Source: Candidatus Nomurabacteria bacterium GW2011_GWC2_42_20 (GTDB lineage Bacteria > Patescibacteriota > Minisyncoccia > Phycocordibacterales > UBA1550). From it: a stretch of 64,000 nt of DNA. Positions 49,240 to 63,380 of this stretch are shown in pieces; the first letter of the stretch is position 1; each line of letters begins with the position of its first letter. A program made the translations under genes and the position numbers. The DNA lies in NCBI GenBank assembly GCA_000998425.1, contig LCDG01000003.1:1619-65618 (forward strand), read 5' to 3'. The notes under the pieces are model-generated. The model was not told the origin of the DNA. It saw only the letters and a list, made by a program, of their open reading frames with translations, and ran no database searches.

Positions 49240-50718
49240 ATGAAATACATTATCTACTGTCGAAAATCCACGGAAAGCGAAGACAGACAACTTCTGTCAC
49301 TGGATGCCCAAGAACGGGAGCTTTTGGATATTGCTAATAAGCACAGCCTAGAAATTACAAAAGTTTTTCGCGAGAGCATGTCTGCCAAAGCACCTGGTCG
49401 CCCTATCTTTGACGAGATGATGAAAATCATTGAAAAAGGAAGAGCAGATGCTATCCTCTGTTGGAAAATTGATCGTCTCACGCGTAATCCTGTTGATGGC
49501 GGAAAAATTCAGTGGCTCCTGCAAACGAACAAGATAAAGTGCATTCAGACTTTCGAGAAAAGCTACTTCCCTAATGACAATGTTCTGCTCATGAGTATCG
49601 AGCAAGCAATGGCGAATCAATACATTCGAGACTTGAGCGTGAATGTAAAGCGTGGGCTACGAGAAAAATTGCTTCGTGGAGAATGGCCAAACAAGGCACC
49701 TTTTGGATATACAAACGACAAGGGGTCTAAGTTTGTCATTCCTGATCCTGTTCGTTCAAAATATGTTTCTCGTGCTTTTGAAATCTACCTCACGGGCTCA
49801 CATGGCACAAAAGATATTTCAGAAATTCTTTACAAGGAGGGTTTACGCACGGCTACAGGAAAGAAAATTTTGAAGGGGCGCATTCATAGCATTCTTTCCT
49901 CAATTTTCTACACGGGCATCATGGAAAAAGAAGGAAAATATTATGAAGGCAAACATAAGCCACTCATCTCAAAAGAAACTTTTGAGAAAGCTCAAGATCT
50001 TATGCACGGCCGTTCACGACCCCGCCCACAACGATTATTCTTCCCTCTTCGTGGCTTTCTCAAGTGTGAAAATTGCGGATGCGCCCTCACTGCATCTCTC
50101 AAAAAAGGTCATCACTATTACTACTGCACGGGAAACAGAGACTTTTGCAATGAACACAAAAGCTACATGCGAGAGGTGTACCTATATGAGAAAGTTTCTG
50201 CTGTCCTCGAATCAATTCATTTTTCAGAACGCAAGATCGAGATTATGTATCAGGCGGCCAAGGAGAGACTCGAGTTTGATAATGGGTACAACAACCAGAC
50301 TATATCCACCCTCCAAAACCATTTAAAATCGCTTGAGACGAAAGAATCCCTTTTGCTCGACACTTTCCTCGCTGAACAGATTACAAAGGATTTATACGAC
50401 GCTAAAATCCTCGCTTTGCGTAATGAGCGAGTTCAAGTTACCAAGCAACTCAAAGAAGCCGAATCACGACAACCTGTCGCGCTGTTGGAACCTACCAAAA
50501 ATGCTTTTTTAACCGCTAGTAGAGCCTCAAAAGAGTTTTTAGAAGGCGACGATTTGAAGAAAAGAAATATCCTAGAAAGTCTCTGTTGGAACCTTTCGCT
50601 CAAAGAGAAAAATATCCATACAGTGTCGCTCAAAAGTCCTTTCGACATCATGTCAAAAGCATCGAAAAATGACGGTTTGTGCACTAAGCTGGGAGGCTTG
50701 GAATCGAACCAAGATTGA
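49240..50718 (+). CDS. large serine recombinase
   Basis: Resolvase catalytic domain with Ser in YCRKSTESEDRQ, DRLTRN motif, recombinase domain, and zinc ribbon (CENCGC...YYYCTG). The C-terminus overlaps the tRNA-Gln 3' end. Confidence 0.9.
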   Translation: MKYIIYCRKSTESEDRQLLSLDAQERELLDIANKHSLEITKVFRESMSAKAPGRPIFDEMMKIIEKGRADAILCWKIDRLTRNPVDGGKIQWLLQTNKIKCIQTFEKSYFPNDNVLLMSIEQAMANQYIRDLSVNVKRGLREKLLRGEWPNKAPFGYTNDKGSKFVIPDPVRSKYVSRAFEIYLTGSHGTKDISEILYKEGLRTATGKKILKGRIHSILSSIFYTGIMEKEGKYYEGKHKPLISKETFEKAQDLMHGRSRPRPQRLFFPLRGFLKCENCGCALTASLKKGHHYYYCTGNRDFCNEHKSYMREVYLYEKVSAVLESIHFSERKIEIMYQAAKERLEFDNGYNNQTISTLQNHLKSLETKESLLLDTFLAEQITKDLYDAKILALRNERVQVTKQLKEAESRQPVALLEPTKNAFLTASRASKEFLEGDDLKKRNILESLCWNLSLKEKNIHTVSLKSPFDIMSKASKNDGLCTKLGGLESNQD

Positions 50719-50759
50719 CGGCTTCAAAGGCCGCTGTCCTACCATTAGACGATCTCCCA
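50689..50759 (-). tRNA. tRNA-Gln (UUG)
   Basis: Hand-folded cloverleaf: U1-A72 first pair as in bacterial tRNA-Gln, D-arm GUCU/AAUGGUA/GGAC, anticodon stem GCGGC/GCCGU with loop CUUUGAA, T-arm CUUGG UUCGAUU CCAAG, discriminator G; CCA not encoded. Confidence 0.85.
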
Positions 50760-56857: not shown

Positions 56858-56962
56858 TTTCAAACTATCAGCCTCTTTTGTTTGACAAAAATATAATATA
56901 GTGCTATGCTTGCTTTAGAATCGTGACATTGTGTTGCGATAAATCCTAAGGAGGATCAAGAG

Positions 56963-57211
56963 ATGGACAGAGACTTTACCGTAATTGCAGTGCTTGTTGT
57001 AATCAGCGCAATTGCCGTGCTGGCAACAAAAGTGTACTTGGGTAACACTGTGGCTGGCATTGTCACAATTGTGGCAACAATTTTTGTCGCTGGCAAATGC
57101 CTTCTTTCATTAATGACAATAACAAAGCAAGAAAAAAATGCATTAGCCAAGAAGAATGGTTCTGAGGATATTTCATTCGCCCCGGTTGGGAGGATGTCTC
57201 AGTTCCCATAG
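56963..57211 (+). CDS. small membrane protein
   Basis: 82 aa, two hydrophobic helices; followed by a strong terminator. Confidence 0.3.
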   Translation: MDRDFTVIAVLVVISAIAVLATKVYLGNTVAGIVTIVATIFVAGKCLLSLMTITKQEKNALAKKNGSEDISFAPVGRMSQFP

Positions 57212-57228
57212 CAGCAAAGTATGAATAA

Positions 57229-57269
57229 TACCCTTTGCAAAACTAGGTTTTGTGAAGGGTATTTTTTTA
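57229..57269 (+). terminator. Rho-independent terminator
   Basis: ataccctt tgcaaaactaggttttgtg aagggtat followed by T7. Confidence 0.55.
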
Positions 57270-57316: not shown

Positions 57317-59524
57317 ATGGCAACCAAACAATACAAACTCCTCATCGTAGAATCGCCGTCAAAGGCGAAGACTATTGGGAAATATCTTGGGGACGAATAT
57401 GTTGTAAAGGCGAGCGTTGGGCATATTCGCGACCTTCCAAAATCAAACAAGCAAGCTATCGATATCCCCGGGGGCTTTATTCCTTTTTACGAAATCTCAA
57501 AAGGTAAATCCGATGTGGTGCATGAGATTGACTCACTTGCAAAGAAAGCGAGCGAGGTGCTTCTTGCAACCGACCCTGACCGTGAAGGTGAGGCTATCGC
57601 ATGGCACATTGCAGAAGCATGCGGTCTAAAAAAACCAAAGCGTGTCACCTATCACGAGATCACCAAGAGTGCCATAGAGGAAGCCATCGCGCATCCACGC
57701 GAGATTGATGCCAACCTTGTGAAAGCGCAGGAGGCGCGACGCGTTCTAGACAGACTCGTGGGATACGACCTCTCGGGTCTCATTTGGAAAAAAGTTCGCT
57801 ACGGTCTCTCGGCAGGGCGCGTGCAATCCCCCGCTCTCCGCATTATCATGGAGCGCGAGCGTGAAATCCGTGCCTTTATTCCAGAGGCGTATTGGACCCT
57901 CACAGCAAAAGTAAAAACAATGAAAGGCGCCGAGCTTGAGCTTTCATGCACAGAGGAACCCAGTGATGAATCAATCGTAAAAAATATCCTAAAAATAGGT
58001 CGCGCAAATCAGTGGGTTGTGCGTGAGGTAAAAGAAAGCGAGGTGGGCCGTTCACCAAAGGCACCATTCATTACTTCTACACTTCAGCAGGCTGGTTCTT
58101 CACGCTTTGGATTTGCACCGTCACGCACTATGGGTATCGCGCAAAAGCTTTACGAAAAAGGTTTCATTACCTACATGCGTACCGACAGCACAACTCTCTC
58201 TAAAGACGCAACCACCGCGATACTTGCAGAAATTACGAAACGCTATGGCGCACAGTCAGCTGAGGCACGCGTGTATAAAACCAAGAGCAAAAATGCCCAA
58301 GAAGCGCACGAGGCTATACGCCCTACCGACGTGAGTAAGGACAACCTCGGCATCAATCCCGAAGAACAAAAGCTTTACCGTCTCATTTGGGCGCGAACCA
58401 TTGCATCACAAATGGTGGACGCGAAGCTTGCAAGAACAACAATACTCGCTAATGTGCGAGATTTCAGCGTGCCAAACTTTTCTGTCACTGGTTCGCGTGT
58501 CATCACACAAGGATGGCTTGCCGCAGATCCTGACTCTCGTAGTGAGGATGTCGAACTTCCAAAAGTTGCTGAAGGTGAGTCGCTCATTCTACTTTCTCTC
58601 GATGATGAGGCAAAATTTACCGAGCCACCAGGACGCTACTCTGAAGCAGGTCTCGTGAAGGAGCTTGAAAAGCGCGACATCGGTCGTCCTTCTACGTATG
58701 CGTCTATTATTAAAACGATTCAGGATCGTGGCTATGTCATTAAAGATGGTAAAGCACTCAAGCCGACAGACACGGGGGACGTCGTGAGCTCATTCCTCGA
58801 GGAACATTTTGCAAACTATATTTCAGACACCTTCACATCAGAGATGGAGAACAAGCTCGACGATATAGCAAACGGCGAGCGCGAGTATGTAAAAACACTC
58901 AAGGATTTTTATGGTCCATTTTCCAAAGACCTCAAGGCAAAAGACAAGTTAGATAAACAGACGACTCTCGGCGACGCAGACCCACAACACAAATGTCCAA
59001 AATGCAACAGCCCGATGATAATCAAGCTCGCGCGTACGGGGAAGTTTCTCTCGTGTAAAAAATATCCTGACTGCGACGGCGCGCGCATGATAGACGGCAC
59101 CGAGCTTGCCGGCCCGCGCGATACTGGAGAGCTTTGTCCAAAATGTGGAAAATCAAACCTATTTGAACGTGATGGGCGATTTGGAAGATTCATTGCCTGC
59201 GGCAATTATCCAAAATGTAAACATATTAAAAAAGACGAGACTGCCGCGCTCCTCAACCACACGGGTGTCCCCTGCCCAATGTGTAAAAAGGGTTTTATGA
59301 CAGAGCGCAAGGGTCGCTTTGGAATTTTTTATAGTTGTACTGGCTACCCAGACTGCAAAAATGCAATCAAAGCAAGGCCGACAGGCAGAATTTGTGAGTA
59401 TCCAAAAATTGACGGCACCCCTTGCGACTCACTCATGATGGAAGGCACGAAGACAATTCCAGAACGCTGTTCAAATAAATTGTGCCCAAACCATAATCCA
59501 CATAAACTAGAGAAGGTGAGCTAG
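57317..59524 (+). CDS. topA: DNA topoisomerase I
   Basis: Toprim (ESPSKAKTI), catalytic Tyr region, and three C-terminal C4 zinc ribbons. Confidence 0.95.
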   Translation: MATKQYKLLIVESPSKAKTIGKYLGDEYVVKASVGHIRDLPKSNKQAIDIPGGFIPFYEISKGKSDVVHEIDSLAKKASEVLLATDPDREGEAIAWHIAEACGLKKPKRVTYHEITKSAIEEAIAHPREIDANLVKAQEARRVLDRLVGYDLSGLIWKKVRYGLSAGRVQSPALRIIMEREREIRAFIPEAYWTLTAKVKTMKGAELELSCTEEPSDESIVKNILKIGRANQWVVREVKESEVGRSPKAPFITSTLQQAGSSRFGFAPSRTMGIAQKLYEKGFITYMRTDSTTLSKDATTAILAEITKRYGAQSAEARVYKTKSKNAQEAHEAIRPTDVSKDNLGINPEEQKLYRLIWARTIASQMVDAKLARTTILANVRDFSVPNFSVTGSRVITQGWLAADPDSRSEDVELPKVAEGESLILLSLDDEAKFTEPPGRYSEAGLVKELEKRDIGRPSTYASIIKTIQDRGYVIKDGKALKPTDTGDVVSSFLEEHFANYISDTFTSEMENKLDDIANGEREYVKTLKDFYGPFSKDLKAKDKLDKQTTLGDADPQHKCPKCNSPMIIKLARTGKFLSCKKYPDCDGARMIDGTELAGPRDTGELCPKCGKSNLFERDGRFGRFIACGNYPKCKHIKKDETAALLNHTGVPCPMCKKGFMTERKGRFGIFYSCTGYPDCKNAIKARPTGRICEYPKIDGTPCDSLMMEGTKTIPERCSNKLCPNHNPHKLEKVS

Positions 59525-59661
59525 GAAGCATGCTTTGCGTGCGCAAATCGTCTTCGTGGGGCGGAGCTATATCGAGTGAAGCGAGATAATGAGCCGGGGT
59601 CGAGAGTACTTAGTCCGCGCAGTGTGTACACACACGAGCAGACTTAGTAACTCGTAACCAG

Positions 59662-59734
59662 GACAATACCCGAACGTTGCTCAAATAAACTTTGTCCCAA
59701 CCATAACCCGCACAAACTAGAGAAAATTAAGTAG
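59662..59734 (+). repeat. second copy of topA 3' coding end (synonymously diverged)
   Basis: Encodes TIPERCSNKLCPNHNPHKLEKIK*, against topA ...TIPERCSNKLCPNHNPHKLEKVS*. 11 of 11 nucleotide differences in the first 21 codons are synonymous; a stop lies 4 codons upstream in that frame. Confidence 0.7.
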
Positions 59735-59797
59735 ATTGACACATAAATAGAGAAAAGGTAGTCTTCAAAGAGACACATTCACATAGAGGAGATTGTA

Positions 59798-60094
59798 ATG
59801 ATTGAAACACTAGGAGTAATTATTCTGTTTGTATTTATTTACTACATTCTTCCCACTATAATTATATGTGGAGGATATTTGTTGTATAAAATCTGGTCAG
59901 CAAATCCGTATGAAGTCGAGAAGGTTCAGCAAATGAAACACACAGTAAAGCTTGCAAATGCAGGTAATCAAAATGCCATTCTTGCATGCGAAGAAGACTA
60001 TCAAATTAGAAAAAGCATACGCTATGTTGACGGGCAGATCATTGCTCACTACTCAGTCCCATCTTGGATGACTTTGCGTGCCTTCGGTTTCTAA
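59798..60094 (+). CDS. small N-terminally anchored membrane protein (paralog 1)
   Basis: MIE start, one TM helix, motif KLANAGNQNAILAC. Preceded by TTGACAC-N17-TAGTCTT and an AGGAG ribosome-binding site. Confidence 0.45.
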   Translation: MIETLGVIILFVFIYYILPTIIICGGYLLYKIWSANPYEVEKVQQMKHTVKLANAGNQNAILACEEDYQIRKSIRYVDGQIIAHYSVPSWMTLRAFGF

Positions 60095-60105
60095 GCGACA
60101 CCTTC

Positions 60106-60140
60106 GTCCCCATTTGCTCAAGCGCAGATGGGGACATTTT
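60106..60140 (+). terminator. hairpin terminator after small ORF 1
   Basis: gtccccat ttgctcaagcgcag atggggac followed by atttt. Confidence 0.4.
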
Positions 60141-60185
60141 AAATTATAAAAACAAAAGGGATGGCTTCATCATTGCGTATGCGCA

Positions 60186-60263
60186 AAAAAAACAATCCAC
60201 GAGAGGTGTAGTAATAAACTTTGCCCAAACCATAATCCACATAAACTCAATAAACCTGAATAA
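60186..60263 (+). repeat. third copy of topA 3' coding end (heavily synonymously recoded)
   Basis: Encodes KKTIHERCSNKLCPNHNPHKLNKPE*. Differences include CGC->AGG (Arg) and TCA->AGT (Ser) codon-family switches. No ATG precedes it in frame. Confidence 0.7.
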
Positions 60264-60319
60264 TTGACACTTATGGGCGATAAGTATAGTCTTTGATCTA
60301 GACACTATTTAAGGAGGTT

Positions 60320-60586
60320 GTGATGATTGAAAAAATAAGTTTTTCACTGATTGGGCTCTTTGTTCTTCTGATGATTTGGCCGTGGCTCATGGAGCTGATT
60401 TTGTATGACAAGACGACACGTCAAACGCGTCAACGTCTACAACTTCTCATAAAACGAGCAAACAACGGCAATGACGCAGCTCGAAGGGCGTGCGACAGAA
60501 ATGGTCTCATCAACAAAGGAATGGTTCTTTGCGAGGATGGGATAAACGTGAAGAGTGTCTATTCCCTTCCGCATAGATGGCAATGA
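60320..60586 (+). CDS. small N-terminally anchored membrane protein (paralog 2)
   Basis: MMIE start, one TM helix, motif KRANNGNDAARRAC; the promoter and ribosome-binding module is homologous to paralog 1's. Confidence 0.45.
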   Translation: MMIEKISFSLIGLFVLLMIWPWLMELILYDKTTRQTRQRLQLLIKRANNGNDAARRACDRNGLINKGMVLCEDGINVKSVYSLPHRWQ

Positions 60587-60634
60587 CTCCATCGCTACTT
60601 CAAAACTGCATGACCATTTCAGGTCGTGCAGTTT

Positions 60635-61802
60635 TCATTTGTATTTCTCCATCATATCCCATATCGCACCAGCGACGTTACGTGGCTTGCCTTCAAATGG
60701 CAGATGGTGGTTATCGAAAAACGGCATGCTGTTGCACTCGATAATTCCACATCGCTTCTCCTTTCTCCACGAGTGGCTGATATCATTGATTATAAAATCA
60801 ATACCGACGATAGGCGCCTTCAAAACATCGGCAACTTGCTCAAAAAGCTCGACATTGTCAGGGTGCACCAAATCAGAGACATCGGCAGTCGTGCCACCCA
60901 CACTCCAATTCACTTTTTGATGAAATGTCACGCGCTTCCTCATTTATAGCACTATCATCAATTTTTATTTTTGAAAAATATGGGCCAGTGCGTGCTGGGT
61001 GTTTGTTGGCCTCATCCACAAGCTCTTGAATGGTACTCACCCCATCTCCTATCACATATGGCTGGTTCCGACGAAGCGTTGCTACAAGTTTTCCATCGAC
61101 CACAGTGGCTCGATATACTGCGCCAACAAGTTCCTCTTCTACAATTACCGATGGCGATATTTTTGTCGCTATAAAAAATGCGCGCACGAGCTCATTTTCA
61201 TCAGTAATATGAAGAGTCGTATGCCTAGAACCAGACCCATGGCGGGGCTTCACAATAACTGGCGTTTCAAGATTCTTAAAAACCTGCATCGCTCCTCTTT
61301 TTGTAATCACAGAGGATCCTTTTGCGACAGGAAATCCATATTTAATAAAATGTTTTTTGAGAGCATCTTTATCATCAATCCATTTCACCTGATGCTTTAT
61401 CTTCTGAGGTAGTGGTATCCCTTCATAAGTTATACGTTTACCATTTGGGAACTCCGCGATATAAATGTTTCTTGGTAGCCCAAAAAGTCTAAACTCCCAA
61501 ACATTTAAACCCCTCTTGTTGGCCTCCTTCCAAAGCATTCCTGCAAGTATTGAAACATCGCTATCTACTTCAATTTGTTTTTTTGCTAGGCCGGTTTGCA
61601 AGCACGCTCGAATGAAATGTGGAGTAACTAGATGCTCATATGAATGAATCTGAAAAAATAACCAATTCATTAAACTCCAGCGAGTGAAAAGTAGGTTAAA
61701 AACAGAGCTGATGATAATATCAGCATACACAATCCGGTGAAAGATTGCGTTGTTGCTCCCGCACTCCCTGCATTCCATTGGTTTTGGTAATTTAAATACC
61801 AT
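60635..61802 (-). pseudogene. cyanophycin-synthetase-like ATP-grasp ligase, frameshifted (no Mur-ligase domain)
   Basis: Two overlapping minus-strand ORFs (60873..61802 and 60635..60943). Together they match the CphA ATP-grasp half (VIVKPRHGSGSRHTTL; ATVVDGKLVATLRRNQPYVIGDGVSTIQELVDEANKHP; VGGTTADVSDLVHPDNVEL; EGKPRNVAGAIWDMM). The frame switches near 60945-60965. Confidence 0.5.
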
Positions 61803-61862
61803 AATTCATGCAGTATACCACGAATCTTTTTATGGTATTCCAGATTTCTTTTTGTTAAAATT

Positions 61863-63380
61863 TTGTGGCATAGTAAGCCAATGCTTCCGCCTAAAAAAAT
61901 TGACTCTTGCCCATCAATAAAGGAGATAATTTCACTCCTAAAAAATCCAACAAAGGACGATATTGCGCTTATAGAAAAGGCTTATGCCTTTGCAAAAACA
62001 GCACACGAGGGGCAAAAACGCTACTCTGGGGAACCATATTTCCTTCATGTGGCAAGCGTAGGGAAAACACTTTCGGCGATTAACATTGACGCCACTACAA
62101 TAGCTGCAGGAATCCTCCATGACACAATTGAAGACGCAGAAATACCTGCGCGAACAATTGAAAAAGAGTTTGGTAAAGAGGTGTTGTCTCTTGTAGAAGG
62201 AGTGACGAAGCTCGGGAAATTGAAGTACCACGGAGTAGAGCGACACGTAGAGAGTTTGCGTAAATTTTTTATCGCTATGTCGCACGATGTGCGCGTATTG
62301 CTCATCAAGCTCGCTGACCGACTTCACAACATACAAACATTGGAACACGTGCCAGAAGCAAAAAGGCACCGTATCGCCCTTGAAACACTAGAAGTCCACG
62401 CACGCCTCGCTGACAGATTTGGTATGGGAAAATGGAAAGCGATTTTTGAGGACTCTGCATTCCCGTATGCATACCCAAAAGAGTATGAGCAGGTTCTTGC
62501 GCTTATCAAAAACAAACGTGTCGTAGATGAAAAATATGCGGAAAAAATTCATCGCTCTATTCAAAAAGAGCTTGCAGCCAATGGTATCAAGACTGCACGA
62601 GTTGATTATCGAGTCAAAAATCTTTTTAGTCTCTGGAAAAAACTTGCGCGAAAGGAAATGGACCCCGACAAAGTGTACGACATTCTTGCTGTGCGTGTCA
62701 TTGTAAAAACTGTCGAGGATTGCTACAAAACACTTGGCATAATTCATAAACACTGGCGTCCGGTTTCTGGTCGCATAAAGGACTATATTGCAACACCAAA
62801 ATCAAATGGTTATAAATCGCTCCACACTACTATCTTTCGCGGAGATGGAGGGATTATAGAGATACAGATACGCACAGAGGAAATGCATGCCGAGGCTCAG
62901 TATGGTATCGCCTCTCATTTAGCATACAAAGAAAAAGGTTCTATACACGGAGAAACTGAGCGAAATCTTGCTTGGGTAAAGGAGCTTGCTAAATGGCAAA
63001 AAGAGGTCGCAAGAACAGATGATTTTATGGAGCATCTCCATATGGACTTTTTTAAGAACCGCACATTCGTTTACACTCCAAAGGGTGATGTGATTGATTT
63101 ACCAGAGGACTCGAGTCCAATTGATTTTGCGTATGCTATTCATTCAAATATAGGTAACCACCTGGCGGGTGCAAAAATAAACGGCAAGCTTGTATCGATT
63201 GAAACAAAACTTACAAATGGCGATATTGTTGAAATAGAAACAAAGGAAAGCGCGAGCCCAAAACGTAAATGGCTAGACTATACAAAAACTACCCTTGCCA
63301 AAAGGCACATCCGCACATATCTCGAAAAATCAAATCCTATTGAGCTACTAGCACAGAAATTTTTTGGGAAGAAAAAGTAG
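61863..63380 (+). CDS. spoT: bifunctional (p)ppGpp synthetase/hydrolase (RSH, short form)
   Basis: HD hydrolase domain (HDTIED), synthetase domain (RVKNLFSLWKKL...YKSLHTT), and TGS-like C-terminus; 505 aa, no ACT domain. Confidence 0.9.
   Translation: MWHSKPMLPPKKIDSCPSIKEIISLLKNPTKDDIALIEKAYAFAKTAHEGQKRYSGEPYFLHVASVGKTLSAINIDATTIAAGILHDTIEDAEIPARTIEKEFGKEVLSLVEGVTKLGKLKYHGVERHVESLRKFFIAMSHDVRVLLIKLADRLHNIQTLEHVPEAKRHRIALETLEVHARLADRFGMGKWKAIFEDSAFPYAYPKEYEQVLALIKNKRVVDEKYAEKIHRSIQKELAANGIKTARVDYRVKNLFSLWKKLARKEMDPDKVYDILAVRVIVKTVEDCYKTLGIIHKHWRPVSGRIKDYIATPKSNGYKSLHTTIFRGDGGIIEIQIRTEEMHAEAQYGIASHLAYKEKGSIHGETERNLAWVKELAKWQKEVARTDDFMEHLHMDFFKNRTFVYTPKGDVIDLPEDSSPIDFAYAIHSNIGNHLAGAKINGKLVSIETKLTNGDIVEIETKESASPKRKWLDYTKTTLAKRHIRTYLEKSNPIELLAQKFFGKKK

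Follow-up and report, generated by a model that had tools for sequence, protein, structure and literature searches.

Why does the 3' end of a single gene occur three times in succession, with each displaced copy standing immediately ahead of a small gene of its own? This question is raised by a locus in a 64,000-nucleotide (nt) stretch of Candidatus Nomurabacteria bacterium GW2011_GWC2_42_20 (contig LCDG01000003.1), the whole of which is referred to here as the window. The duplicated gene end belongs to topA, and the order at the locus is topA with its live end (copy A), a structured RNA element, a displaced topA end (copy B), a promoter, the small open reading frame (ORF) ORF1 and a terminator, followed by a further displaced end (copy C), a promoter, ORF2 and a terminator. 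A sequence-only reading had described a cassette-like tandem array of promoter and ORF modules, each placed after a mimic of the topA end; that account did not mention the structured RNA by which copies A and B are separated. The explanation that we favour as the probable one is that a site-specific insertion element, which regenerates the gene end that it enters and which is now decayed in the window, has acted at this locus, and that insertion or recombination stacked the old topA ends together with a neighbouring gene. The features of the locus are given below; L-numbers here and throughout (L007, L010 and so on) denote the fetched loci of relatives and the metagenome and viral contigs.

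57317-59524, + strand: topA, 735 amino acids (aa), from the ORF list; Pfam Toprim, Topoisom_bac and Zn_ribbon_Top1 on the identical gene
59446-59457, + strand: target site inside topA, CAC followed by GAAGACAAT, complementary to the guide of the RNA element; the repeats start at the junction of 59448 and 59449
59450-59524, + strand: copy A, the live topA end (last 75 nt of topA)
59525-59659, + strand: structured RNA element, a degenerate copy; covariance model 66.8 bits, E 7e-16
Parts of the element, + strand: Pa 59528-59542; guide 59547-59558; P2/Pb approximately 59560-59596; P3 59598-59659 (ends GTAACC)
59660-59734, + strand: copy B, displaced topA end, peptide RTIPERCSNKLCPNHNPHKLEKIK and stop; begins exactly at the guide-defined site
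59736-59797, + strand: predicted ORF1 promoter and 5' leader, read from sequence; conserved in 8 species
59798-60094, + strand: ORF1, 98-aa small membrane protein, long subtype; gene called on 22 contigs read; family member
60106-60135, + strand: terminator-like hairpin after ORF1; 12-bp stem with 7 G-C pairs, then a T run
60189-60263, + strand: copy C, older displaced topA end, peptide KTIHERCSNKLCPNHNPHKLNKPE and stop; orthologous to the live end of L007
60264-60322, + strand: predicted ORF2 promoter and 5' leader; 90-96% identical to L007; conserved in 8 species
60323-60586, + strand: ORF2, 87-aa small membrane protein, short subtype (88 aa if an upstream GTG start is used)
60602-60635, + strand: terminator-like hairpin after ORF2; 14-bp stem, then a T-rich tail

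The displaced copies are former topA ends

Positions 59300-61900 match base for base in six independent assemblies, a single 88-nt indel excepted, and the locus is therefore not an assembly artefact. Within it the three ends form a 68-nt repeat family, with the real end at 59447-59514 and the other members at 59657-59724 (81% identity) and 60186-60253 (75%). Rather than the mimics proposed by the sequence-only reading, B and C proved to be displaced former ends. The live end of L007 is the orthologue of copy C, whose peptide has been kept: copy C codes for ...NKLCPNHNPHKLNKPE and a stop, an exact match to the live TopA end of L007 (...HKLNKPE and a stop), and window positions 60188-60334 are 90% identical to L007 3313-3459. 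The live ends closest to copy C are those of L008 and L007, and those closest to copy A are from L013 and L009. The last 60 nt of topA are 68% identical to L007 and 85-90% identical to L013 and L009, compared with 78-98% identity to L007 for upstream topA; copy A is, as judged from these identities, foreign relative to L007.

Second copies of the topA end were found in eight other species (L010, L013, L014, L018, L022, L028, L011 and L050). In the first six of these the displaced copy still codes for the peptide variant of its own species; it is decayed in L050 and interrupted in L011. The interruption in L011 (3191-3311) is an insertion of about 90 nt with a perfect 14-bp hairpin, ACCTTTTGTTTGCTGACAAACAAAAGGT. 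Codon differences between live and displaced ends were counted as follows.

Window, A vs B (21 codons): 10 synonymous, 1 non-synonymous
L010: 15 synonymous, 0 non-synonymous
L018: 8 synonymous, 0 non-synonymous
L013: 3 synonymous, 1 non-synonymous
L014: 1 synonymous, 0 non-synonymous
L028, A vs B: 3 synonymous, 0 non-synonymous
L028, A vs third copy: 15 synonymous, 2 non-synonymous

Summed over these six species there are 55 synonymous and 4 non-synonymous changes. Because the divergence is almost all synonymous, the copies must have diverged under coding constraint, i.e. they are xenologous or older functional ends and not drifted duplicates. What precedes each module once functioned as the end of topA and has been moved downstream together with the neighbour gene. 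The left boundary of copy C coincides with the guide site described below, which suggests that C was also displaced by such an event.

Two other ideas about the copies were tried and rejected. One was read-through of the stop codon into copy B; the A-B spacing is 210 nt and in frame here, but it is about 200-215 nt in relatives, and in-frame stops intervene. A template and variable repeat of a diversity-generating retroelement does not fit either, as the A/B differences span all four bases instead of being specific to adenines and are synonymous, and no reverse transcriptase lies within 10 kb.

A structured RNA element with a target-matched guide

In every species with a duplicated end, the topA-end copies are split by a conserved non-coding segment of about 135 nt. 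Its fold consists, in order, of a hairpin (Pa), a single-stranded guide of 12-19 nt, P2, and a long hairpin (P3) that ends in GUGACC. P2 has a GGC/GCC base, a conserved GGAG/CGAG internal loop and a variable hairpin, Pb; P3 has the sequence GGUCGCG...CUGUGACC. RNAalifold, applied to a structure-blind MAFFT alignment of ten topA-site segments, gave 46 pairs, 32 of them with compensatory changes. A covariance model was built from the ten topA-site copies, and an alignment of 100 metagenomic copies was fitted to it; the ten-copy MAFFT alignment is independent of the model. On the 100 copies, 44 of the 46 pairs carried compensatory double changes and 93.9% of pair cells were canonical, as against 63% when shuffled and 34-44% when slid (none of 500 shuffles reached the observed value). 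Because a G.U pair is conserved, the structure can be assigned to the sense strand; no terminator stands between topA and the element. Rfam 15 gave no hit at E<=10 in this region of the window, and Rfam models run on 11 loci with well-folded copies gave no hit to the element at E<=1, with only the neighbouring tRNAs scoring. The curated covariance models for group I and group II introns and for known self-cleaving ribozyme cores likewise found no match in the window or in the 11 loci.

The guide of the window element (59547-59558, AUCGUCUUCGUG) is complementary to topA 59446-59457 (CACGAAGACAAT, codons G-T-K-T-I), with which it forms an inverted repeat. All of the repeats start right after the C of the site's triplet. 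The guide pairs across the site: its last three bases match the 3 nt on the upstream side, outside the duplicate, and the remainder pairs with the start of the duplicate; the guide is thus able to pair with either the upstream target or the downstream duplicate. Guide and site covary at topA (CACC with GGUG in L028; CACG with CGUG in L022, the window and L013; CACA with UGUG in most others; UAC with GUA in L050), and the same is seen when the 3' triplet of the guide is set against the 3 nt upstream of the site (GAA-TTC, GTG-CAC, GTA-TAC). The offset of the guide from the conserved CGGAG is constant. At least 9 guide-duplicate pairs were present in 24% of elements, compared with 4.3% of mismatched combinations of guide and duplicate.

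Among further details of the fold in the 100-copy alignment are a CUGC tetraloop, which is very common in Pa, and a conserved GAGYGAGGCGAR motif at the tip of P3. The tandem G.A-type internal loop of P2 (GGAG/CGAG) resembles a k-turn-like protein-binding site. A kissing interaction of the Pa loop (CUGC) with the Pb loop (GCAG) was considered and rejected, since the loops lack consistent covariation in the alignment.

The same element lies at the ends of tRNA genes

Outside topA, the strong matches to the covariance model in the fetched loci directly adjoin the 3' ends of tRNA genes. At these sites the guide complements the T-loop, the T-stem and the 3' strand of the acceptor, and GUGACC is followed by a duplicate of the tRNA from TTC/R in the T-loop (the slash marks the site) to just past the discriminator. 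L022 may serve as an example: its guide GAUGAGGAAUCGAA is paired with TTCGATTCCTTCATC, and GATTCCTTCATCGCCCGCA is the duplicated sequence. A second class of targets lies at the junction of acceptor end and discriminator (...GC/AC...), with repeats of about 7 nt. The rule common to all of these sites is C/R, and each element is followed by a target duplicate that runs from the site to just past the end of the gene. The repeat is therefore exactly as long as this interval, i.e. about 7 nt, 18-28 nt or, at topA, 66-77 nt. Together with the covariation described above, these results establish the existence of the RNA element family, its fold, the rule that relates guide to target and the flanking duplications.

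The covariance model confirmed at least 100 copies in the 80 metagenome loci listed, and among the element-carrying loci listed an element lies no more than 120 nt downstream of 66 of 130 tRNA genes of Patescibacteria, covering nearly all isoacceptor types. Of the more than 100 relatives of the element found overall, most adjoin the 3' ends of tRNA genes. Several of the tRNA duplicates bear stem-breaking changes. A CCA after the discriminator that is confined to the downstream tRNA copy, sought as a signature of reverse transcription, was present in 6 of 39 copies, which matches the background of about 15% of tRNA genes that encode CCA and is therefore uninformative on reverse transcription. 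Elements in tandem arrays occur in L028, L032, L116, L229 and L259. L116 is the only viral contig that carries the element (80 of about 120 pattern-matching viral stretches were tested with the model), and a second pattern search for it in viral sequences found nothing. In L116 (2840-3319; IMGVR_UViG_3300033463_005745) the array comprises at least 3 copies that share the guide GUAGGGAUUUGAA and the same duplicated tRNA segment. A full-text search of the literature found no description of such an element, which thus constitutes a large and apparently undescribed RNA family.

Distribution of the element among relatives

The topA site is filled in nine cases (the window, L010, L011, L013, L014, L018, L022, L028 and L050) and is empty, with the target intact, in relatives that are interleaved with these (L007, L008, L009, L012, L015-L017, L019 and L049). 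Similarity between elements does not track the host. The elements of L010 and L014 are 86% identical as against 76% for topA, and those of the window and L010 are at the alignment floor although their topA genes are 79% identical; the window element is 83% identical to that of L013.

No integrase ORF was found in or beside more than 100 units of 130-750 nt, a search that did not extend to a trans-acting enzyme, and no recombinase or TnpB/IscB gene lies next to the copies examined. In L010 (8430-8936) the second topA-end copy is followed by a partial second element whose core is missing; its Pa hairpin and guide are 87% identical to those of the window and are followed by a 99-aa GIY-YIG-type ORF.

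Two modules encoding a fast-evolving small membrane protein

The similarity of copies B and C covers about 150 nt: it takes in the topA-end copy, the promoter and the ribosome-binding site and reaches into the first codons. As the sequence-only reading had reported, both are followed by TTGACA, a spacer of 17 nt, TAGTCT, AGACAC, an AGGAG(G) ribosome-binding site and ATGATTGAA, which opens the small ORF. In the B module these are the -35 box TTGACA (59736-41), the 17-nt spacer, a -10-like TAGTCT (59759-64), AGACAC (59771-76), AGGAG (59787-91) and ATG (59798); in the C module they are TTGACA (60264-69), the 17-nt spacer, TAGTCT (60287-92), AGACAC (60300-05), AGGAGG (60312-17) and ATG (60323). 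The terminator that had been proposed for each module is also present, as the hairpins at 60106-60135 and 60602-60635. The block of promoter and ribosome-binding site is kept in nine sequences from eight species, with TTGAC, TAGT.TT, AG, GG.G and the G of the start codon invariant. Its -35 TTGAC starts straight after a stop codon, which is that of topA in L007, L009 and L011 and that of the topA-end copy in both window modules. A promoter therefore follows each topA end because the -35 box of the small gene natively abuts the topA stop codon in relatives; repeated modules are indeed present, as the proposal of a cassette-like array held, but a cassette design is not needed to account for them.

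A conserved sigma-70-like promoter is predicted to drive each small gene, an assignment that comes from conservation and not from consensus strength. A perfect -35 box and a 17-nt spacer stand beside a -10 box, TAGTCT, that agrees with TATAAT at only 3 of 6 positions; this counts against the assignment, and it is because of this poor fit that a generic sigma-70 scan called neither promoter. The -10-like box and the downstream AGACA also form a short inverted repeat, AGTCT...AGAC[A/T] (59759-59776 and 60287-60305), which might serve as an operator or form a stem at the 5' end of the transcript, instead of or besides promoter elements.

ORF1 and ORF2 were correctly taken to be paralogs, as they share 34% identity over 47 aa (BLASTP, E 2e-5, a weak but significant match) and fall into one family in profile searches; ORF2 has 87 aa from ATG and 88 from GTG. 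A protein named for Parcubacteria group bacterium GW2011_GWC1_42_11 has the same sequence as ORF1, which also has a homologue, P0007, at 63% identity. A word-indexed profile search of 5.8 billion proteins yielded 8 relatives, and an exhaustive HMMER search of 1.84 billion cluster representatives yielded 22 clusters only, all of 85-107 aa and all from Parcubacteria. A search for the unit downstream of topA in related genomes found a member of the family immediately downstream of topA in L007, L009, L011, L012, L050 and L327, and about 400 nt downstream in L008. The single transmembrane helix noted earlier corresponds to one strongly hydrophobic N-terminal stretch in 23 of 23 aligned members; hydropathy analysis also showed that K and R are richer after it than before it, which by the positive-inside rule suggests that the C-terminal part would be cytoplasmic. 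The family alignment bears out the conserved A-N-x-G...A...C motif, with A46, N47, C57 and Y80 invariant (ORF2 numbering) and G49 and A53 nearly so.

The AlphaFold model of ORF2 (pLDDT 75.5) has a long helix at 3-47, a short helix at 51-60 and a beta-hairpin, so that the small protein is modelled as an N-terminal anchor with a soluble part of about 50 aa (helix, helix, beta-hairpin). This model, together with a Pfam search that gave no hit at E<=1 for the small proteins, speaks against the Sel1/TPR-like fold that had been suggested as a check. Nor was there a significant match for them in NCBIfam, PADLOC or PHROGs, and with Foldseek against the PDB the best E value for the ORF2 model was 0.49, the top insignificant partial matches being winged-helix proteins.

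Comparison with L007 divides the C module and the sequence after it into three parts. Copy C, the promoter, the ribosome-binding site and the first codons (60211-60330) are 90-96% identical, the ORF body and terminator (60331-60648) 16-50%, and the downstream gene from 60649 onward 93-100%. L007 holds a long-subtype protein at the position of the short-subtype ORF2 of the window, and pairwise identities within the family are 26-73% among close relatives. This pattern points to either allele replacement or very fast evolution of the ORF body inside conserved flanks. ORF2 and its L011 orthologue are 73% identical, with a ratio of non-synonymous to synonymous substitution rates (dN/dS) of 0.09. 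The two modules are thus real, lineage-restricted, fast-evolving genes for single-pass membrane proteins, and taken alone they are an ordinary, if fast-evolving, lineage-specific gene family. As a guess, the proteins might be membrane-tethered cytoplasmic adaptors under diversifying or allele-swapping selection. Other small single-pass proteins of Patescibacteria are similar in size (about 85-107 aa), N-terminal anchor, lack of a known domain and narrow range; the present family differs from them in its fixed position downstream of topA, with a promoter that abuts the topA stop, and in alleles that are swapped between flanks of 90-97% identity.

Surrounding genes

The genes within 10 kb on either side include serS, dprA, topA, an ATP-grasp-like gene, relA/spoT and parB, and the 20-kb surroundings recur in GCA_003508085.1 and in several groundwater metagenomes. 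The genome is a Yonathbacteria-like member of the Parcubacteria, and the populations with this contig are from Rifle-type groundwater. TopA of L007 is 97% identical to that of the window. At the nucleotide level the identity of topA to its closest relative swings between 78 and 98% per 60-nt segment, with other relatives locally closer; these fluctuations against L007, L009 and L013 suggest that homologous recombination may be frequent inside topA. ARAGORN found no tRNA or tmRNA gene in 59000-61000.

Downstream of ORF2, the ATP-grasp-like gene (60635-61802, - strand) is split into two overlapping ORFs of 102 and 309 aa. It is a single ORF of 403 aa in six other assemblies of the same population, which have 88 nt at about 60939 that the window is without. 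Between dprA and topA (region 56882-57263) lies a gene for an 82-aa small membrane protein (56963-57211), which has a strong promoter match (TTGACA-17-TATGCT, 10/12) and a terminator hairpin of 17 bp; no family match was obtained for it, nor is it related to the ORF1/ORF2 family. The nearest recombinase, a 492-aa large serine recombinase (49240-50718; Resolvase/Recombinase/Zn_ribbon_recom), is about 9 kb upstream, and its gene overlaps by about 30 nt the 3' end of a convergent tRNA-Gln gene (50688-50759, - strand). An integrated element may have its edge at this site (49240-50759), which is free of copies of the RNA element.

Explanations for the stacked gene ends

As stated at the outset, the locus is probably the product of a site-specific element that inserts into a gene and regenerates its end. 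The guide would pair with the target across the C/R site, where the element would insert, and the incoming unit would leave a duplicate of the target downstream, from the C/R site to just past the gene end. Since a duplicate of the gene end is present, the end of the gene stays intact, with the former end left as a relic. On this explanation the topA ends are duplicated because the structured RNA element sits between A and B, and repeated insertion, or recombination with donors that bear such units, would stack both ends and modules. The chemistry might be that of an RNA-guided protein supplied in trans, of a ribozyme or of an integrase.

A number of observations weigh against this explanation. 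The window element is the lowest-scoring of all (66.8 bits), ends in GUAACC and has lost a base at the start of copy B, and its fold is weak, with a minimum free energy z-score of -1.4 as against -3.3 to -6.1 in relatives; to judge by these features it is a degenerate, decaying copy. A search for the remnant of a second element upstream of copy C (60160-60188) gave a score of 26, within the range of shuffled sequences (mean 19.6, maximum 33). In the window, copy A and the element look as if they had been acquired together; in L010, L011 and L050 it is the downstream copy B that looks foreign. Copies at different tRNA genes have a median similarity of 0.43 within a genome and 0.37 between genomes. 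Same-genome copies are therefore no more alike than those of different genomes, and recent bursts of transposition within a genome were ruled out. Such dissimilar copies fit lineages of target-specific homing elements, and equally well an old cis-acting element retained by the host. No recombinase, reverse transcriptase or nuclease is tied to any copy; as there is no linked enzyme gene, we infer mobility from the anatomy and distribution of the element only.

A stronger form of the favoured explanation is possible, and we put it forward tentatively: the RNA of about 135 nt would itself be the active part of a new class of programmable homing element that has no ORF. Its guide would pick a C/R site in a tRNA T-loop, in a tRNA acceptor end or in a protein gene (topA), and the mobile unit would comprise a replacement gene end, optional cargo and Pa-guide-P2-P3. 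Insertion would be brought about by a putative ribozyme activity of its own or by a nickase, reverse transcriptase or recombinase in trans, and the ORF1 module would have travelled as cargo or as a hitch-hiking neighbour.

Of the alternatives to the insertion element, the least unlikely is an RNA retained by the host and immobile now, but we still consider it unlikely. It would act in cis, as a 3' trailer or as a device in the 3' untranslated region, by pairing with the 3' part of the tRNA or topA transcript that precedes it. Switching between the real target and the downstream decoy copy would control processing, stability or folding, and the stacked ends and modules would be by-products of its origin. 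Such a role would be consistent with compensatory changes that keep the structure in more than 100 diverged copies, with the age and dissimilarity of copies in the same genome, with the sense-strand placement and the lack of a terminator between topA and the element, and with a guide that can pair with either partner. Yet the element is dispensable, as many close relatives have empty and intact topA sites, and the window copy is decaying. Function alone does not readily explain tandem arrays and xenologous gene ends, there is no obvious role common to tRNAs and a topoisomerase mRNA, and spread over more than 20 target types would still demand a mechanism of insertion.

A distinctly less likely alternative is accretion mediated by an integrase, in which the repeats are attachment (att) sites for a tyrosine or other recombinase supplied in trans and the RNA fold is incidental or regulatory. 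Direct repeats that span the interior of a gene to just past its end are what tRNA-targeting integrative elements produce, tandem arrays occur, and the tRNA sites lie in the T-loop, which is reportedly a sublocation used by integrases in tRNA genes. Against this alternative stand the lack of an integrase in or beside the more than 100 units, repeats whose length ranges from about 7 to 77 nt and is set by the distance to the gene end, and a guide that covaries with its target, including 3 nt outside the repeat, a feature foreign to att sites.

Removal of the element at the RNA level is very unlikely. The segment from the site in copy A to GUGACC would behave as an intron, copy B would be the part that is translated, and the guide would have the role that the internal guide, P1/P10, plays in group I introns. 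The guide does pair through its 3' part with the last 3 nt of the would-be 5' exon and through its 5' part with the first 9-16 nt of the would-be 3' exon, and displaced ends retain frame, peptide and stop codon with synonymous-only divergence. However, copy A already ends in a stop codon, which makes splicing unnecessary; copy B is decayed in L050 and interrupted in L011, copy C is decayed in the window, and several tRNA duplicates have stem-breaking changes. The core is just two hairpins and matches no intron or ribozyme model.

The simplest history, a recent tandem duplication in situ of topA end, promoter and small ORF followed by drift, had been named by the sequence-only reading as the scenario that would undo its proposal, and we find it hardly credible. 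Copies B and C are 529 nt apart and are followed by promoter, ORF and terminator in the same order, as such a duplication would leave them. Neutral drift, however, predicts the opposite of what is observed, namely non-coding sequence that is about 75-85% identical between the modules and ORF proteins that are 34% identical. Each ORF has a separate closer relative elsewhere (ORF2 at 73% in L011, ORF1 at 63% in P0007), no alignment to L007 is possible for the ORF body, although its flanks reach 90-96% identity, copy C resembles the ends of L007 and L008 whereas copy A resembles those of L013 and L009, and the differences among the end copies are synonymous.

An integron-like array of gene cassettes has a negligible probability, for its superficial resemblance to repeated units of site and gene is outweighed by the promoter in each unit, by bounding hairpins that are only terminator-like with no attC-like imperfect palindrome, by repeats that are copies of the end of a protein-coding gene and by the absence of an intI-type integrase within 10 kb. 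Integron cassettes are promoterless, each ends in an attC imperfect palindrome, and they stand next to intI with attI and the promoter Pc.

Relation to known systems

The favoured insertion element has much in common with integrative elements that use the 3' ends of genes. In both cases the target gene stays intact, since its 3' end is renewed from the incoming DNA, the displaced end persists as a partial direct repeat, repeated events lead to arrays, and tRNA sites fall in the T-loop. The units described here differ in having 130-750 nt and no integrase, in a repeat length that tracks the distance to the gene end, and in being defined by a structured RNA with a target-complementary guide.

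Free-standing homing-endonuclease genes of organelles and phages bring in a foreign C-terminal segment and leave a pseudo-end behind, as in Allomyces atp6. The arrangement of gene body, xenologous end, element and old end is the same here, and the ends again differ mostly at synonymous sites. Unlike those elements, the present one is a non-coding RNA fold, and an endonuclease ORF is missing from the window and from most copies, a GIY-YIG ORF being nearby in L010 only.

A structured RNA with a target-matched segment that varies with the target is also found in group II introns (exon- and intron-binding sites, EBS/IBS), in the bridge and seek RNAs of IS110/IS1111 and in the omega RNAs of TnpB/IscB. 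The element differs from all of these in that no reverse transcriptase, DEDD recombinase or nuclease gene is associated with it, in its single contiguous guide instead of bipartite loops, in its size and fold, in the lack of an Rfam intron or omega-RNA match and in the long target duplications that flank it. In its combination of guide, scaffold and 3' target copy the element is reminiscent of a prime-editing guide RNA (pegRNA). Its anatomy brings together a trait from each of these three groups, yet a defining feature is missing for every family tested: integrase, homing endonuclease, intron or ribozyme core, and adjacent recombinase or TnpB. We rate the element as lying outside the known kinds, and infer its mobility and mechanism.

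Implications

The locus can be re-read: the apparent array of gene-end mimics records how the end of one gene was replaced several times in succession. The swapping of small-protein alleles between flanks that are 90-97% identical is a pattern typical of genes involved in conflict or partner recognition. If the guide directs insertion, the element would be a minimal, programmable system without an ORF that edits the 3' ends of genes and leaves the gene intact. Such a system, if true, would bear on our view of mobile elements and on the genome evolution of ultra-small symbiotic bacteria, and possibly on tools for genome engineering.

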